Below the pieces are notes generated by a model that saw nothing but the letters and a program-made list of their open reading frames with translations, was not told the origin of the DNA and did no database searches. DNA of 64,000 bases from a virus. Shown piece after piece: positions 30,665 to 60,851 of the stretch; positions within the stretch are counted from its first letter, which is position 1, and every line of letters begins with the position of its first letter. The stretch lies in the IMG/VR virus record IMGVR_UViG_3300047509_000156, positions 32,001-96,000 of that record, one strand, 5' to 3'. The translations under genes were made by a program, and so were the position numbers.

Positions 30665-30958
30665 TCACGAGACCTGCGGCAAGGGTCGGACGTGCCAGCG
30701 TCCCTTGACCTGGAAGCCCCAGAAGACGTTGGCGTCGTGCCATCCCTTCTGCCACTGCCGGTAACAGTGCCGGTCGTCGGCGTGACTGTAGGGGTTGTCC
30801 GACAGCCCCTTACCGGCGATGCGGTCGCTGGACCCGCGATTGAACGCTGTCGCCATCTGTTCGGTGAGCGTTTCCTTGTACTCCTGTTTCAATCCGCCCC
30901 CCCGGTCATCCGAGGGGGAATTCTCGTCATAGCCTGGCATCTTCTCGTGGTCGATCAT
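30665..30958 (-). CDS. Rmf/CrpP-fold-like protein
   Basis: AFNRG...G.....NPY......RQWQKGW. Confidence 0.55.
   Translation of the reverse strand: MIDHEKMPGYDENSPSDDRGGGLKQEYKETLTEQMATAFNRGSSDRIAGKGLSDNPYSHADDRHCYRQWQKGWHDANVFWGFQVKGRWHVRPLPQVS
30886..30921 (-). CRISPR. Solitary CRISPR-repeat-like unit A
   Basis: ATTCCCCCTCGGATGACCGGGGGGGCGGATTGAAAC; hairpin plus ATTGAAAC handle; same family as unit D. Confidence 0.6.
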
Positions 30959-31221
30959 TCCTCTTCCTCCACTCGCTCCACCTTGAATTCCGGTAGGCTG
31001 TCCACGTCGATCAGCCGCCGCATCGCCGCCCGCGCCTCACCAGCCGTCCACGCTTGGACGATGAAGTCGATCTCCGTTCCGGCCAGGCGCCACAGGGGAG
31101 TTGGTTTCTTGAGGTGGACGACGCGGGCACCTATTTCCTTGTTGATATTGGCAAACGCACGCCTCTTACTCTTGGCAGACTTCAGGGAGGCGATCTGTTC
31201 GCTGATGCTTACCCGGCGCAT
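30955..31221 (-). CDS. Hypothetical protein
   Basis: Coupled ORF with RBS. Confidence 0.55.
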   Translation of the reverse strand: MRRVSISEQIASLKSAKSKRRAFANINKEIGARVVHLKKPTPLWRLAGTEIDFIVQAWTAGEARAAMRRLIDVDSLPEFKVERVEEEE

Positions 31222-31829
31222 ACTTCCTCCTCCGGATACTCGTTACCCCAGCCATCGAAACCCGATCGCCTCTTACGGGAGAATAGTTCCAGTCGCGGTT
31301 CTGGGCTGCACTTCTCGACCATCTCCATGAAGGAGTCTGGTTTGACGCTGTGCGGCAGGCGTTCGGAGAGAAATAGAGTTGGTATCGCCTCCTCGACTTC
31401 CAGACGAAGTTTTCCACGGACGGCGAATAGGCAATGTTCCGTGGCACTGCGGAACCAGTACCCCGTCTTGCACGACGGCTCGAAGGAAGCCTTGTCGGCC
31501 TTTCTTACCTTGCCCCAGGTGATGATCGTCTTGGGTTTGAATCCCCACGCCCTAGCGAGGTCGTGTGCTTCCTCCATGAAGGAGTTTGTCGTCCAAAGAT
31601 AGAGGTGGGCGTCCTCCTGAACGAGAGACTGTACGCCCAGACGGATCAGATCGATCATGCTCATCGTCTCGTAGTGACTGCCAAGATCGGCCTGAATGAT
31701 CTCTGCCGCCCTCCCCTCCTGGCTGCCCCTGCCGCCATTGCCGACGACGGCGCGTGGCGAGTGATAGGGCCACGGCGGGTCAGCCACGATGCAGCGGTAG
31801 TGCTTCGGAAGATCACTCAATTGTCGCAT
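31209..31829 (-). CDS. MT-A70 family adenine methyltransferase
   Basis: IVADPPW, HLYLWTT, AWGF, TEHCLFA, HSVKP, RLELF. Confidence 0.92.
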   Translation of the reverse strand: MRQLSDLPKHYRCIVADPPWPYHSPRAVVGNGGRGSQEGRAAEIIQADLGSHYETMSMIDLIRLGVQSLVQEDAHLYLWTTNSFMEEAHDLARAWGFKPKTIITWGKVRKADKASFEPSCKTGYWFRSATEHCLFAVRGKLRLEVEEAIPTLFLSERLPHSVKPDSFMEMVEKCSPEPRLELFSRKRRSGFDGWGNEYPEEEVCAG

Positions 31830-31841
31830 TTCCGCTCCTTA

Positions 31842-32201
31842 TTAGATTTCCCAGAGAGTAACCACGATCTTGCCGCCCTTGCACACTTCCTTGCGGATGA
31901 CATGTAGATCGTCGATATGTTCATCATCCTGATAAACTCCGGCCTTTTGCAGGGCGTCCAAAGTCGATTTGGCTAAGTTATCGATATCGCGTCCTCGACG
32001 ATCAGGAGGGAACACCTCGATAAGCACGCCGAGCCTGCCGTCCATTGGCTTCAGGCGAGCGATAACGCACATGATGCCGACTGCTTCCCTGAACAGTTTA
32101 CCTTCCTCGCTCACAAGAACCTTGATCCCCTTGGGGCAGGCTACATGGCGCCAGTAGTGGTTGACGCTTGGAGCGAAAGGGAGTTCGATTGTCTGCTTCA
32201 T
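31842..32201 (-). CDS. rusA: RusA-family Holliday junction resolvase
   Basis: PSVNHYW, PPDRRGRDIDNLAKSTLDAL, YQDDEHI. Confidence 0.92.
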   Translation of the reverse strand: MKQTIELPFAPSVNHYWRHVACPKGIKVLVSEEGKLFREAVGIMCVIARLKPMDGRLGVLIEVFPPDRRGRDIDNLAKSTLDALQKAGVYQDDEHIDDLHVIRKEVCKGGKIVVTLWEI

Positions 32202-32542
32202 GTCGTCTCCTTGACCACCTCGTACTTTCTGCCGACCCTCTTGATGTACCCCGTAGCGATCAGCCCTCTGGCGCCGGCCAGACAGGCGTAGACTCGCCGC
32301 GAGCAGGCTGAATCGCTCTCGGCTCCTATGAGTCCGAAATGCGTCTGGCTTTCTTCCCAGCAGGCCAGTATTAGCGTGGTGAGCGAGAAAGGTTGCTGGA
32401 GGTTTTCTGCCACACCGAGAAGCACCTCCACGGCTGATCCGGGTATGAGGATTTTCTTCTTGATGGCGTGTTTCTCGTCGTAGACGCGGTTCCACTCAGC
32501 CTCGTCGTGTGCCGCCAGTGCAGCAGGGGTGTCGTCGTTCAT
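32198..32542 (-). CDS. Hypothetical winged-helix-like protein
   Basis: ACWEE...FGL.G...GLI..GYI. Confidence 0.55.
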   Translation of the reverse strand: MNDDTPAALAAHDEAEWNRVYDEKHAIKKKILIPGSAVEVLLGVAENLQQPFSLTTLILACWEESQTHFGLIGAESDSACSRRVYACLAGARGLIATGYIKRVGRKYEVVKETT

Positions 32543-32717: not shown

Positions 32718-33134
32718 TCAGAATCCTCCGCCCTGCGAGATGTAACCGGCGACCTTCTCGGGCAACGGTTCCGGCTTCACATCGGCCAAGTCCATGCGTC
32801 CGAGAAACTCGATGGCTAAAGCACGGACGCAAAATGAGTACACGCCCTTACACGTCTTGATCCAGGGATGTCCGCGTACCTGGCCGTCTGGTTTGCTCCA
32901 GGCTTCGAGGAACTTGCACACCAGTTTATCCAGCGGCGTGCCGTACTGGATCGCCGTCGAAAACAGGATGGCCCAGTCGTCGGCCACTAGGCGGATGTCA
33001 CCGTTGCCGACGACGAGGAACACCTCCCCCAACTTGCCGTCCTCATAGAGGCCGCAAGTCAGAAACACGTCCGTGCCTCCGATATCGACGGACCATGTGA
33101 AGGATTTGCGACGGTCGGGGAGTTTACGGTACAC
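32718..33134 (-). CDS. Stand-alone class II ribonucleotide reductase C-terminal (TSCPD-like) domain
   Basis: RKLPDRRKSFT...GLYEDGKLGEVFL...S.AIQYGTPL. Confidence 0.8.
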   Translation of the reverse strand: MYRKLPDRRKSFTWSVDIGGTDVFLTCGLYEDGKLGEVFLVVGNGDIRLVADDWAILFSTAIQYGTPLDKLVCKFLEAWSKPDGQVRGHPWIKTCKGVYSFCVRALAIEFLGRMDLADVKPEPLPEKVAGYISQGGGF

Positions 33135-33426
33135 CTTGCATCTCCTTGGATTCTCTCTGTCTTTGAATCGTCACCGCACGCCACATGGCTTCCAGAGTTT
33201 CGTGGAGATCCTTCATCTGATCGGCCTTGCCGCGAACGCCGGCACAGAGCATCTTCTTGATGGCGTGCTGCCGCGCCGGGCAGGTTATTCCGAACGCCTC
33301 CAGTACGCAGTACACGTCAACGAGGATAGGCTTGCCGTTGTCGTCTGCCGGGTGGATCAGACGGAGATACTTGGAGCCGCTGTGGCTCTGTATTGGCCTC
33401 TCGTAAATAGACGGGTCTTTTTTCAT
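33124..33426 (-). CDS. Phage hypothetical protein (DUF3310-like)
   Basis: DVYCVLEAF...QHAIKKMLCAG.RGK...DL. Confidence 0.7.
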   Translation of the reverse strand: MKKDPSIYERPIQSHSGSKYLRLIHPADDNGKPILVDVYCVLEAFGITCPARQHAIKKMLCAGVRGKADQMKDLHETLEAMWRAVTIQRQRESKEMQGVP

Positions 33427-33472
33427 GGTTGTTTCCCAGGCAGCCGGCGGTTCTCCTTGCCCACTATCTCCA

Positions 33473-33572
33473 GTTTCAATCCACAGCCAGCCCAGCGGCC
33501 GGCTGCACCGTCTCATCAGTCCGATCAGATTGGTGGTTTCAATCCACGCCTAACCCACATGGCCAGGCGCAC
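33473..33572 (-). CRISPR. CRISPR mini-array: two degenerate type I-C-like repeats and one 27-nt spacer
   Basis: GTGCGCCTGGCCATGTGGGTTAGGCGTGGATTGAAAC - CACCAATCTGATCGGACTGATGAGACG - GTGCAGCCGGCCGCTGGGCTGGCTGTGGATTGAAAC; intergenic; flanked by a 14-bp inverted repeat. Confidence 0.75.
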
Positions 33573-33597
33573 GATTCCGCCGGCTGCCTGTTGATCG

Positions 33598-34443
33598 TCA
33601 GTGGTCGCGAACCCACACTGTCTCGACCATGCGCCTCTTGGATTCTCCCGATGCGGCGTTGTTCGGCAGCGTCCATTCCTGCTGCGTTGTGTGCTTGTTC
33701 AGCATCCGGTCGTAGAGGTCGTTGCGGTATCCCGAGAGGATAAACTTCGACTTACCGCGAAGCAACTGCTCCAGAAGCCTCTCGTGCTGTTCGACCGTCA
33801 TCTCGTGCTGGTAGTCGTCCGTGCTGGCGCGGGTCTCGGGCATGTAGCTTGGATCTAGGTACAGGAGCGTGTTCTCGCCGTCCTGCTCGCGGCACACGTC
33901 GATGCCGTCGTGGTTGAGGATGACGACTCTCTTCAAACGGGCGTGGACCTCTGGAAGTCCCTCGATGCACGTCAGCCACGCGGATGCCTGCTCGTTCTGT
34001 CCACGGCGTGTCCTGTTCCGCGACAGTGGGGCGAAGTGTTTCATTCGCCCAGCGAGCGATTGGCGGCAGCAGATAAAGAAACTACAGGCGCGGAGAACAC
34101 AGGCTGCTGTTCCTTGCGTGGTGATTTCGCTGGAATCTGGAACACCTTTCCACCCGATATTCCTCAGAATTCCGGCGGAAACAGTCCACTCGAACTCGCT
34201 AAACGGTGTCGCTTCGATGACACGGAAGAACGCCTCGAACGTATGCGGGTGACGGATAACAGTCCAGAAGTTTGTCAGGTGGCGGTAGAGGTCGTTCGCA
34301 ACCTCGCTGACACCTTCCGGGTTCTTGGCGAGCAGGACAGACAATCCGCCAGCGAACGGCTCGACGTAGTGCAGGTGCGGTATCGAGTCGGTAATCTCGA
34401 CGATCCTGGCGGCAAGGTATGATTTTCCGCCATTCAGTGCCAC
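33598..34443 (-). CDS. D12-class (Dam-like) DNA adenine methyltransferase with disrupted N-terminus
   Basis: GGKSYLA, YVEPFAGG, NDL, YLDPSY, ILSGY. Confidence 0.85.
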   Translation of the reverse strand: MALNGGKSYLAARIVEITDSIPHLHYVEPFAGGLSVLLAKNPEGVSEVANDLYRHLTNFWTVIRHPHTFEAFFRVIEATPFSEFEWTVSAGILRNIGWKGVPDSSEITTQGTAACVLRACSFFICCRQSLAGRMKHFAPLSRNRTRRGQNEQASAWLTCIEGLPEVHARLKRVVILNHDGIDVCREQDGENTLLYLDPSYMPETRASTDDYQHEMTVEQHERLLEQLLRGKSKFILSGYRNDLYDRMLNKHTTQQEWTLPNNAASGESKRRMVETVWVRDH

Positions 34444-35205: not shown

Positions 35206-35343
35206 CAGAGTAGTTCGTGCCAGTCAGGAAACTGAGCGGCCTTCGTCCCCGACTTTGAAGCCTTCCAGAACCGCCTCGGCGCGCCGCCAGAGAAAGACCA
35301 CCAACCATAAGGCAATCCGTTGCAACATCGTAAACCTCCATGA

Positions 35344-35380
35344 GTTTCAATCCACAGCCAATATTGCGACCGGACGCATC
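35344..35380 (-). CRISPR. Solitary CRISPR-repeat-like unit C (degenerate)
   Basis: GATGCGTCCGGTCGCAATATTGGCTGTGGATTGAAAC; last 17 nt identical to the mini-array repeat at 33473. Confidence 0.6.
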
Positions 35381-35667
35381 GGAAAAATCGCCCGCCGCCG
35401 GGTTGGACTGCAAACGACAAAGGTCTGGCGCCTCTCCAACGAGGATCGGCACTCCCAGCGGCGGGCGAAGTCACGTCTTAGGCTTATAAGTCTTCAGAGT
35501 GCCGTACACTCCACATCACCTAGCCTTTCCTTGTTTTGTGCTCGCCGGAGCATAGAAGAGAACCCCCAACCACGAGCGTCCTTTACCACCCTCCGGCGAG
35601 CCTGGCCTCTCGGGTGGCCTCGCGATGACCCGCGCCGGCAACGAGCCGGATAGTCTCCCGAGAAGGA

Positions 35668-36004: not shown

Positions 36005-36031
36005 TATACGCTCCTGTCTCTTGCGTGTGAC
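36005..36031 (-). promoter_or_regulatory. GTCACA-N15-CGTATA motif copy 4
   Basis: Exact motif, intergenic. Confidence 0.8.
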
Positions 36032-38679: not shown

Positions 38680-39719
38680 TATTTGACCCCCATCTGATCG
38701 TAGGCGTAGCGCGTGACGCGGCCCGTCTTGTGGCATTGCTTGCAGCCTTCTCCCCGGCAGAGAGGACAGGCACAGTGGCACTTGGCCGAGCGCACTGTCT
38801 CACAGACCGACTTGAGTTTGTTGATGGCGCTCTTGCGGCGGTCCATGTCAAGGAGCCAGGGATCGTCCGGCATCGTCTCGGTGAACTTCATGAGTTGCCG
38901 GCACCACGACTCCAGTTTACTGTTGAGCCGCTTGATCTGTTGTTCGGTCGTTTCATCTTCGGGCGCTTCCGGCTCCTGGTTCAAGTCTTCATCAGTCTGC
39001 TCGGATAGCGTCTTGCTCTTTTTTTTGCCGCTGCCCTTGCCGAGATTGCGCTTCCTTGCCTTTTTACGCTTGTCTTCACAGGAGGCACAACCGACCACGA
39101 CGCCGTTCTTCTTACACTGCGGGCAGAGGATCGGTTTCCCACCACCGGAAATCTGAGCAATCGTCTGCCCTGACTGGCCGTTGAGGATGACGGAACGGGC
39201 GCCATCGCCTTGCTCGGCAGCGGCAGCATCGACGCCGGCAGCGAACTGAGTGGCGTTCTTGACTGTGCGCTCAGAAACGCCGTGCTCTGAGGCCAGTTCT
39301 GCCGCCGTTTTATTTCCTCCCTGTTGGGGAGGAATCGGGCAAAATTTGCCCGATTCCTCCCCAACAGGTGCGCTATTGCTACTGCGCGTAAGTTCTCTCT
39401 CCTTACCGAGATAGTACAATTTTTGCTCTGGAGTCGCGTTTCGCCTTCCGAACTGGTTTTGGATAATCCAGAGCAATGCCGCTTCGCGTGAAGGTAGCTC
39501 GATTTTCCTTGTAGGAATTTTGAGATGCTTTTCCTCTGCAATATCGAACCGCGTGTGCCCGTCGCCAAGAATCGGTTCGTCTTCTCCTGGCAGTTGAAGG
39601 AGGACAAGCGGGTCGATGTGCTGGCTCTTTTCGATCTCAGCTTCCAGGGTGCTGCGCTCCTCTTTGGTCAGGGCGGGGAGATAGGACTTGAACTCCTGAT
39701 CGATCTTGAAGGATTGCAT
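38679..39719 (-). CDS. ParB-like N-terminal domain protein
   Basis: IDQEFKSYLPAL, ILGDGHTR, NQFGRRN, LASEHGVSERTV. Confidence 0.75.
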   Translation of the reverse strand: MQSFKIDQEFKSYLPALTKEERSTLEAEIEKSQHIDPLVLLQLPGEDEPILGDGHTRFDIAEEKHLKIPTRKIELPSREAALLWIIQNQFGRRNATPEQKLYYLGKERELTRSSNSAPVGEESGKFCPIPPQQGGNKTAAELASEHGVSERTVKNATQFAAGVDAAAAEQGDGARSVILNGQSGQTIAQISGGGKPILCPQCKKNGVVVGCASCEDKRKKARKRNLGKGSGKKKSKTLSEQTDEDLNQEPEAPEDETTEQQIKRLNSKLESWCRQLMKFTETMPDDPWLLDMDRRKSAINKLKSVCETVRSAKCHCACPLCRGEGCKQCHKTGRVTRYAYDQMGVK

Positions 39720-56399: not shown

Positions 56400-56436
56400 A
56401 TTTTCCCCCGGCCAAAATCCGGGGGCGGATTGAAAC
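56400..56436 (+). CRISPR. Solitary CRISPR-repeat-like unit D
   Basis: ATTTTCCCCCGGCCAAAATCCGGGGGCGGATTGAAAC, perfect 7-bp stem, 37 nt, in 5' UTR. Confidence 0.7.
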
Positions 56437-59454: not shown

Positions 59455-59837
59455 CGGATGGTATTGCGCCCGGCCTGCTGGTCGGGTGTGGATTGAAACG
59501 CCTGAAGCGCCATGATCTCCTGTTGCTTCCTCTCGATCTCCCTGGCCTTCTCCTCGCTCTTGCGGAGTTCCGCTGCCTCGATGGCGGCGGCCAGGTCATC
59601 GGCACAGTGCCCGATCAGTGCCTTGGCCTGGTCGATCGACAGGGTGATCTCTTCGTGGGTCGCCGTGGGTGTCGGTCCGGAGTGGTGCATAAGAGGAGGA
59701 AGGGGCCGGCGGATCTTGATGGACGTACCGGAGGCGAGGATCAAGATGGCGTCGGGAGGGAGGGCTTTCTTGGCCATGTGGGACAACCTTACGGGTGGGG
59801 GCGGAATCGGCTCTGGGAGGCGGTAAACGTGGTTCAT
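59451..59837 (-). CDS. Hypothetical protein
   Basis: Coupled ORF. Confidence 0.55.
   Translation of the reverse strand: MNHVYRLPEPIPPPPVRLSHMAKKALPPDAILILASGTSIKIRRPLPPLMHHSGPTPTATHEEITLSIDQAKALIGHCADDLAAAIEAAELRKSEEKAREIERKQQEIMALQAFQSTPDQQAGRNTIR
59463..59499 (+). CRISPR. Solitary CRISPR-repeat-like unit E (type I-C-like)
   Basis: ATTGCGCCCGGCCTGCTGGTCGGGTGTGGATTGAAAC, 10-bp stem with G-U pairs, 8 nt after a stop codon. Confidence 0.75.
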
Positions 59838-60034
59838 TCCTTCGGCTTCATGATGTCGGCGTACATGGACTTGGCGTCCTCGTTGAGGGAGTCGGCCAGT
59901 GACTTACCGCCCTCGGCGCGACGCTGCTCGGAGTATCCAATTGCAACTGCTTGTGCTTCTGGTTTTCCCGCCCGGCGTTCCGTGGCGATGTTCTCGGATC
60001 GTGCTTCGTCCGAAGGGGAATGGTTAAGCGGCAT
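59834..60034 (-). CDS. Small phage protein (MPL...SENI...GKP..QAVAI type)
   Basis: Motif I recognise from phage head-gene neighbourhoods. Confidence 0.6.
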   Translation of the reverse strand: MPLNHSPSDEARSENIATERRAGKPEAQAVAIGYSEQRRAEGGKSLADSLNEDAKSMYADIMKPKE

Positions 60035-60383
60035 GGCTGGCTCCCTCTTTCTCTGGGGCGACGACGGCGAGCAGGTGGCTCTCCGGCATGATAACCAATG
60101 TTTTGCCGTTATGCTCAACCTCGGAGCCCTGGTAGCGCGGGTAAAGGACGGTGTCGCCGACCTTAACCGTCAGAGGGTAGCGGCCTTCCGTCGCGTATCG
60201 CGTCTGGGTCTTGGCGGAGAGCATCTCGGGCACTACGAGTCCTGGCCCAACAGCAACCACGGTGCCGCGCTGCGGCTTATCCTTGGCCGTATCAGGGATG
60301 TACAGACCGCTCTTGGTCCGGTCGGGTGCCTCCAGAGGATCGATGACAACGCGGTCGTTCAGAGGAGAGATCGGGTAACTCAT
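60024..60383 (-). CDS. groES: Co-chaperonin GroES
   Basis: PLNDRVV, TKSGLYIPDTAKDKPQRGTVVAVGPG, VKVGD.VLY..Y.G.E. Confidence 0.95.
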   Translation of the reverse strand: MSYPISPLNDRVVIDPLEAPDRTKSGLYIPDTAKDKPQRGTVVAVGPGLVVPEMLSAKTQTRYATEGRYPLTVKVGDTVLYPRYQGSEVEHNGKTLVIMPESHLLAVVAPEKEGASHAA

Positions 60384-60404
60384 GGAATTACTCCTGGTTT
60401 CGTG

Positions 60405-60431
60405 GTCACAGGTTACTACGAGTAGCGTATA
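60405..60431 (+). promoter_or_regulatory. GTCACA-N15-CGTATA motif
   Basis: Exact motif at strand switch. Confidence 0.8.
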
Positions 60432-60465
60432 TGACTCGTCGCCCGTCAGCAACACGGAGAGAAAG

Positions 60466-60851
60466 ATGAATCACATTGAAGCCTTGCGGAATCTCCAGCA
60501 GGAGACTGGGCACCCCGGTCACGAACTGGGTACGTTCCTGCTCCAGAACAGCAACTCGCTGCCTTACCTCGCGGAGCAGTTGAAGTTTCAATCCCCTCCT
60601 TCGCGGGGCACTTCTGCGGACTCAAGGAGAAGAACGATCTGGACGCACACCGCTGGCGCGATTACGAATTGGTGGAAGTCGGATGGATTAACGGCGTGAA
60701 TCCGAAGACGGCCCGCTCGCTTGTTGAGGCCGGCGTTCTGGTCGAGGACATGCCTTTCGATATGGACGCGAACACCAACTCCCATGTTCGCCTACCACGG
60801 CTGGAAGAGGTGTATCCGAGAATCGGCAAGCCGCTGATCGATGTTCTTTGA
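60466..60851 (+). pseudogene. Hypothetical gene apparently frameshifted at a CRISPR-repeat-like insert
   Basis: Two ORFs join in frame if 41 nt containing unit F are removed. Confidence 0.4.
60585..60621 (-). CRISPR. Solitary CRISPR-repeat-like unit F (type III/I-D-like)
   Basis: GTCCGCAGAAGTGCCCCGCGAAGGAGGGGATTGAAAC, 37 nt, GT start, CCCC/GGGG stem next to handle. Confidence 0.7.

Follow-up and report, generated by a model that had tools for sequence, protein, structure and literature searches.

A soil phage carries, inside one of its operons, a compact repeat-spacer-repeat cassette with two type I-C-like hairpin repeats, framed by a perfect 14-bp inverted repeat. On balance we regard it as probably an anti-CRISPR crRNA mimic of the Racr/Cracr kind that acts on host type I-C proteins, either a decoy alone or a regulatory guide, two forms that we hold to be roughly equally likely. 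The window analysed here is a stretch of 64,000 nucleotides, bases 32001-96000 of a complete virus record of 106,481 bp with direct terminal repeats and 58.7% G+C. The cassette occupies 33590-33437 on the minus strand and reads, from 5' to 3', a 14-nt arm, AATC, repeat 1, spacer, repeat 2, a 22-nt linker and the complementary arm (Table 1). Every part of the one-spacer mini-array that a preliminary description had placed inside a perfect 14-bp inverted repeat was recovered in its place on this strand. The spacer is 26 nt long instead of 27 nt if the G at 33509 is assigned to repeat 2, as in the Rfam alignment.

Table 1 Features of the cassette, its operon and the solitary repeat mimics, in window coordinates
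Feature	Position	Strand	Evidence
5' arm of perfect 14-bp inverted repeat, CAGGCAGCCGGCGG	33577-33590	-	sequence; outer stem in minimum-energy fold
Repeat 1, 37 nt: 9-10-bp stem, 5-nt loop, then UGGAUUGAAAC	33536-33572	-	Rfam CRISPR-DR9, 26.9 bits
Spacer, 27 nt, CACCAATCTGATCGGACTGATGAGACG	33509-33535	-	sequence
Repeat 2, 36-37 nt: 9-10-bp stem, 4-nt loop, then UGGAUUGAAAC	33473-33508/9	-	Rfam CRISPR-DR9, 32.3 bits
Linker past repeat 2, 22 nt, includes AAGGAG	33451-33472	-	sequence
3' arm, CCGCCGGCTGCCTG	33437-33450	-	sequence, minimum-energy fold; end 10 nt before ATG 33426
Dam (D12-class DNA adenine methyltransferase) gene	33598-34443	-	PF02086, E 3.5e-17; phrog_56
Gene downstream of cassette, 100 aa, function unknown	33124-33426, ATG 33426	-	phrog_2452
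Promoter-like motif GTCACA-N15-CGTAT, head of the cassette's operon	36006-36031	-	motif count
U1, C-rich stem, CGGAUUGAAAC, 5' end of RMF-like ORF	30886-30923	-	PF04957 match for ORF
U4, intact handle, degenerate hairpin	35344-35380	-	fold
U5, 15 nt downstream of phage promoter motif	56401-56436	+	motif
U6, closest to natural type I-C repeats	59461-59499	+	31/37 alignment; 30/33 BLAST
U7, CRISPR-DR10-like	60585-60621	-	Rfam

The cassette sits within a minus-strand operon together with genes for a winged-helix protein, Dam, a RusA-like protein and an MT-A70 methyltransferase. The operon is headed by a phage-specific promoter-like motif that occurs 13 times in the window against 0.56 expected, and it looks like an early, partly anti-defence module. 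The cassette begins 7 nt past the stop codon (TGA) of the Dam gene, whose earlier label "Dam-like" was borne out by its Pfam match, while "DUF3310-like", the label given to the downstream gene, found no Pfam support and was replaced by the PHROG assignment. A longer frame starting at ATG 33516 and reading through repeat 2 was rejected as coding, as it had no homology support and the homology of the downstream protein starts well after ATG 33426. Two neighbouring proteins of 138 and 163 aa, considered as Acr candidates, could be assigned to neither a Pfam nor a PHROG family, and a meaningful sequence match in PDB was likewise absent. The Gemmata-type TIGR02996 domain is present in two phage proteins, which, together with repeat families occurring in that phylum, suggests a planctomycete host. 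No matches to Cas5c, Cas7c or Cas8c models were found in the complete phage genome, and the cassette would therefore depend on host proteins. Among the listed public sequencing runs holding the phage DNA, none is recorded as an RNA run. Annotation of the window also gave a GroES-like Cpn10 (60024-60455), an MT-A70 methyltransferase (31209-31829) and a RusA-like resolvase with a 100-aa N-terminal extension (31842-32495), all on the minus strand, as well as a long perfect palindrome or hairpin at 39320-39368 that forms a run of perfect 14-mer inverted repeats and draws spurious Rfam microRNA matches on both strands.

Folding of the sense RNA of the cassette gave -85.4 kcal/mol (z -6.0), with the outer stem enclosing both repeat hairpins, which by themselves reached -17 kcal/mol (z -3.6) for repeat 1 and -20.7 kcal/mol (z -4.7) for repeat 2. 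The antisense RNA folded more weakly (-66.4 kcal/mol) because several G-U pairs turn into mismatches, so that the cassette is far more strongly structured as sense RNA. Of 20 shuffled genomes, one contained a perfect 14-bp inverted repeat whose loop is at most 200 nt, and a flanking-arm score of 14 was reached at 0.25% of random genome sites. Flanking arms of 11 other viral two-repeat units scored 5-9, which lies within the background. A search of IMG/VR for both arms at a distance of 110-140 nt returned no second copy of the outer stem, and the stem of repeat 2 likewise had no matches there. The outer stem is particular to this phage and non-random, and it may have the insulating role considered with the mechanism below.

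Both repeats matched Rfam CRISPR-DR9 over the full 37 positions (local E 3e-5 and 1e-3), with bit scores that stay below the Rfam gathering threshold of 45 bits. Each consists of a stem of about 9 bp closed by a 4-5-nt loop, with UGGAUUGAAAC following at a fixed distance. A scan of metagenomes for this stem-and-handle shape yielded many true arrays with 37-nt repeats, for example GCATCGCCCGGCC-NNNN-GGTCGGGCGTGGATTGAAAC. In one of the recovered loci (L193), natural repeats with the same 9-bp stem and handle form an array directly after a complete cas3-cas5c-cas8c-cas7c-cas4-cas1c-cas2 operon, therefore the repeat family is type I-C. The hairpin shape, the handle, the DR9 alignment and this cas operon context together uphold the initial reading as a type I-C-like one-spacer mini-array. 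The 106-kb genome contains seven copies of the 10-mer GGATTGAAAC, where about 0.2 would be expected, and all seven sites match CRISPR-DR9 or DR10 over the full length. Besides the two units of the cassette, the window holds five solitary repeat mimics (Table 1), and these represent at least three repeat families, which are found in planctomycete genomes as well. In line with a crRNA mimic, six of the seven units lie on the coding strand of the adjoining genes, and U7 follows a minus-strand ORF with a weak coding signal.

The two repeats of the cassette are identical at only 27 of 38 positions (71%), and the nearest natural repeats recovered are 76-78% identical to them. For the stems, we aligned the three phage units of the cassette's repeat family with 13 distinct natural repeats. 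All 144 cells of this alignment are standard pairs, including the nine of each cassette repeat (18/18), and four pairs change on both sides; neither 500 shuffles nor any slid register matched this pairing. Repeat 2 has A-U and G-C in place of the natural G-C and C-G, and repeat 1 has U-A in place of a natural C-G. Both 11-nt handles are perfect, and the fixed parts are the stem base, UGG and the handle. These compensatory changes, made despite the low identity of the repeats, indicate that the stem is under selection, in agreement with the earlier suggestion that the repeats differ in sequence while structure and handle are kept. [quoted passage not shown] The phage repeats hold constant what Cas5c reportedly reads and vary in the loop and the 5' overhang. 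Given the sub-threshold scores and the 76-78% identity, recognition of the cassette repeats by real Cas5c is not assured.

If the cassette acts as a crRNA mimic, host Cas5c would bind both repeats and cut at the 3' base of each stem, at 33547/33546 and 33484/33483. The two cuts would free a crRNA-like RNA of 63 nt with an 11-nt handle, a guide of 26-27 nt and a 3' hairpin of 25-26 nt. Loaded with Cas5c, Cas7 and Cas8c, this RNA would form an undersized complex and so act as a decoy of the Racr type, in competition with host crRNAs. The complex may also be directed, without cleaving, to a host cas or toxin promoter that matches in part, in the manner of Cracr/crlRNA. The 14-bp outer stem would let the cassette fold independently inside a long mRNA, and it might keep the upstream and downstream halves of the mRNA paired after both cuts.

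The cassette was further compared with natural arrays. It shares with canonical type I-C arrays of 37-nt repeats, such as that of L193, the 9-bp GC-rich stem, the 4-5-nt loop and the same spacing of UGGAUUGAAAC, but it has only two repeats, 71% alike, with a period of 63 nt, and it is embedded in a phage operon without leader or cas genes. In the natural family, 96% of 673 intervals measure 70-75 nt (mode 72), and only two measure 63 nt. The spacers of arrays in this family are about 33-38 nt long compared with 26-27 nt here, which agrees with the first impression of a spacer shorter than usual for type I-C, and repeats within the recovered arrays are nearly identical, unlike the two of the cassette. 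With its divergent repeats, its 63-nt period, and neither a leader nor Cas5c, Cas7c or Cas8c encoded by the phage, the cassette is not a working adaptive array.

The same comparison bears on an offensive use, in which the 63-nt RNA would guide host type I-C Cascade and Cas3 against a competing phage or mobile element. Virus-borne mini-CRISPR arrays are said to take part in interviral conflict (Medvedeva et al. 2019, reportedly surveyed by Faure et al. 2019), and the cassette resembles them in being carried by a virus, in having a single spacer and in its reliance on Cas proteins of the host. A true repeat-spacer-repeat architecture with intact handles speaks for such a use, and the assembly graph of the source run branches at the 5' edge of repeat 2, for which a second context or a spacer variant is one explanation. 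We nevertheless consider an offensive mini-array unlikely, since the spacer is too short and the period too rare by the measures given above, repeats that differ this much are not those of spacer-acquiring arrays, and no protospacer was found in IMG/VR or INPHARED. In IMG/VR the spacer pattern had four matches at 18-21 of 27 positions, without a TTC PAM and at about chance level; in INPHARED, partial stretches of 16-19 nt only were obtained (E >=3).

Further searches for a target were carried out. Within the phage genome, the best match to the spacer covered 18 of 27 positions, the level reached in shuffled genomes (18-19), so that the earlier statement that the spacer has no match elsewhere in the window holds; a 12/13 match at 33215-33227 was discarded as expected by chance. 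The handle with the seed (ATTGAAACCACCANTCTGA) had 43 matches in 185,579 species genomes, none with a hairpin, which leaves no CreR-like twin in this collection, and the matches in Pirellulales and Sedimentisphaerales, tried as such twins, all proved to be one conserved coding sequence. In viruses, ATTGAAACCACCANTCTGA had four unrelated matches. PAM plus seed occurred zero times in 774 kb of recovered CRISPR loci (0.7 expected), the recovered type I-C loci held no crlRNA-like unit, and no spacer from any recovered array matched the phage above chance. These empty results are blanks and not refutations. The roles proposed at the outset, namely repression without cleavage, a Cascade sponge and targeting of a rival phage, fit published viral crlRNAs, Racr and virus-borne mini-arrays, but no cas promoter, rival-phage or self target was found, and therefore they cannot be told apart. 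None of the collections searched contains a close relative of the phage: a 7-kb blastn query had no match in INPHARED, and protein searches with Dam and the helicase returned only proteins of 45-49% identity, whose loci do not carry GGATTGAAAC. In a protein collection of about 5.8 billion clusters, the best Dam homologue was 61% identical, and the Dam protein itself was present on one contig.

The public contigs of what is likely the source soil run are interrupted inside repeat 2, with one ending at 33509 and the next starting at 33480. A third contig shares the 30-mer 33480-33509, diverges precisely at the 5' boundary of repeat 2 and continues with 255 unlike letters. This repeat is therefore also present on some further DNA of the sample, for which a host array, a different phage and a spacer variant are candidates. 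With low probability, the phage population contains alternative sequences upstream of repeat 2, which would make the cassette a mini-array whose spacer is exchanged by way of a repeat that it has in common with another locus of the soil sample. Contigs of two other soil runs contain short scattered parts of the region, none of them shown over the cassette.

Among known systems, solitary repeats of phages work as RNA anti-CRISPRs (Camara-Wilpert et al. 2023, PMC10651486). RacrIC1, which inhibits type I-C, lies 11 nt past acrIC5 on one transcript, and SRUFinder accepts a repeat as solitary when no second full or partial repeat lies within 100 bp, with an identity cut-off of 90% (PMC10651486). 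The cassette resembles Racr as a phage repeat mimic without linked cas genes, located 7 nt past a protein gene compared with 11 nt for RacrIC1, and by analogy its expected action would be the capture of the repeat-binding Cas protein and Cas7. It departs from Racr in having two units 63 nt apart, a pair that breaks the solitary rule and that SRUFinder discards, in the 76-78% identity of its repeats to natural ones, under the 90% cut-off, and in a defined crRNA-sized product being expected.

Similar in architecture are the Cracr or viral crlRNA mini-arrays, type I-C ones among them, which have degenerate repeats and short spacers, repress cas or toxin promoters by steering Cas proteins there and also act as competitors of crRNAs (Liu et al., bioRxiv 10.1101/2024.10.29.618823). 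A Cracr is defined by at least 9 PAM-proximal nt that match either the promoter of a host cas or creT gene or the spacer of a host CreA/CreR (10.1101/2024.10.29.618823); CreA and CreR, the bacterial models of Cracr, typically have spacers of 23-27 nt (10.1101/2024.10.29.618823; bioRxiv 10.1101/2023.03.10.532045). The cassette is likewise a phage mini-array outside a CRISPR-Cas locus, with unlike, degenerate repeats and a 26-27-nt spacer that falls within the CreA/CreR range. In contrast to Cracrs, no match of its spacer to a host cas/creT promoter or CreA/CreR was found among the species genomes, the recovered type I-C loci and the phage itself, and its likely host phylum (Planctomycetota) lies outside the three phyla reported for Cracrs. 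It also stands inside an operon and within a 14-bp perfect stem, a feature without mention in the main text of the preprint (10.1101/2024.10.29.618823). The cassette is less novel than first supposed, as mini-arrays of phages that combine degenerate repeats with short spacers, type I-C included, have already been described. It fits a known kind and is set apart by the outer stem, by repeat divergence with kept structure, and by the likely host phylum.

The positions of all seven repeat units raise another explanation, in which the hairpins of the cassette and the five solitary sites are mRNA cleavage or stability signals, cut by borrowed Cas5c or another RNase, with the ribosome-binding region clamped or switched by the 14-bp stem. 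At least three of the seven closely precede a start codon or a ribosome-binding site and one lies 15 nt past a promoter, which would suit such signals, as would the 3' arm ending 10 nt short of the ATG and the strong structure of the whole cassette (z -6.0). But both the 10-mer and the geometry of the stem match real type I-C repeats, a likeness for which a phage-private signal would have no need, and the units copy at least three host repeat families, a pattern that fits mimicry of several CRISPR systems better. We judge an RNA-processing or expression element to be quite improbable as the explanation.

Apart from these alternatives, the crRNA mimic might have a second function. With low probability, we consider that the cassette is a sensor of host Cas activity as well as a decoy, tying downstream expression to the CRISPR state: active Cas5c would cut the operon mRNA twice, and the 14-bp stem would join the halves and alter access to the start region 10 nt downstream. 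That the cassette is a decaying, functionless fragment of a host array gained by recombination is very improbable, since its diverged repeats, sub-threshold Rfam scores and lack of a leader or cas genes nearby would suit decay, but decay would break stems and handles, whereas 18 of 18 pairs are standard with compensatory changes, the 11-nt handles are perfect, the exact 10-mer is common to seven units and a perfect 14-bp stem frames the whole.

If the reading as an anti-CRISPR crRNA mimic is true, RNA-based anti-CRISPR mimicry reaches a large soil phage with a probably planctomycete host, outside the three Cracr phyla, and the cassette is a compact natural design that combines two unlike, recombination-resisting repeats, a short guide and an insulating stem within an mRNA. 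By itself the cassette opens no new class of mechanism. The outer stem and the repeat divergence are easily tested by mutation, and the five further mimics of at least three repeat families make the phage a good system for studying how one phage jams several CRISPR systems.

Several observations concern the solitary units. U7 is, by eye, identical at 29 of 37 positions to a 37-nt repeat ending in GAGGGGATTGAAAC (arrays G367:C74 and G218:C12/C27) from two planctomycete genomes of 7.6-8.0 Mb, a likeness that may point to the lineage of the host and to mimicry of a second CRISPR system. U1 occupies the first ~24 codons of an ORF with an RMF domain (PF04957, ribosome modulation factor; 30665-30958, minus strand), and a TTG in GGATTGAAAC lies in frame just before this domain, which makes the true start of the ORF ambiguous. 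The same unit is enclosed by an inverted repeat (30814-30830/31012-31028; 11 perfect, 15/17 overall, p ~0.005 against random sites) of which both arms are coding, and U5 by a 10/10 arm pair (56330-56339/56518-56527, p ~0.025) with its left arm upstream of the promoter. U4 lies in a stretch of about 460 nt without a convincing ORF (35206-35667), between the winged-helix gene and the next gene, and is followed by GGAGG and a short hydrophobic ORF from 35328.

Other two-repeat I-C-like units in IMG/VR also combine unlike repeats with short spacers. Two IMG/VR contigs of 126 and 188 kb (L085 and L087) carry arrays of several I-C-like units, with repeats that differ from one another, short spacers and 17 handle copies in each locus, and these look like the "Cracr arrays" of the preprint (10.1101/2024.10.29.618823). 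Three metagenome contigs (L163, L183 and L187) have in common two unlike I-C-like units 110 nt apart, the second of which abuts the ATG of a small membrane-like ORF, which resembles the placement of the solitary units in this phage; by protein, these contigs are unrelated to the phage. On another contig (L143:1640-1960), a repeat mimic lies directly past the 3' end of an apparent tRNA gene (GTTCGAATC...), and 237 nt further on there is a second mimic, of a 32-nt I-C family, giving two repeat families per contig as in this phage.
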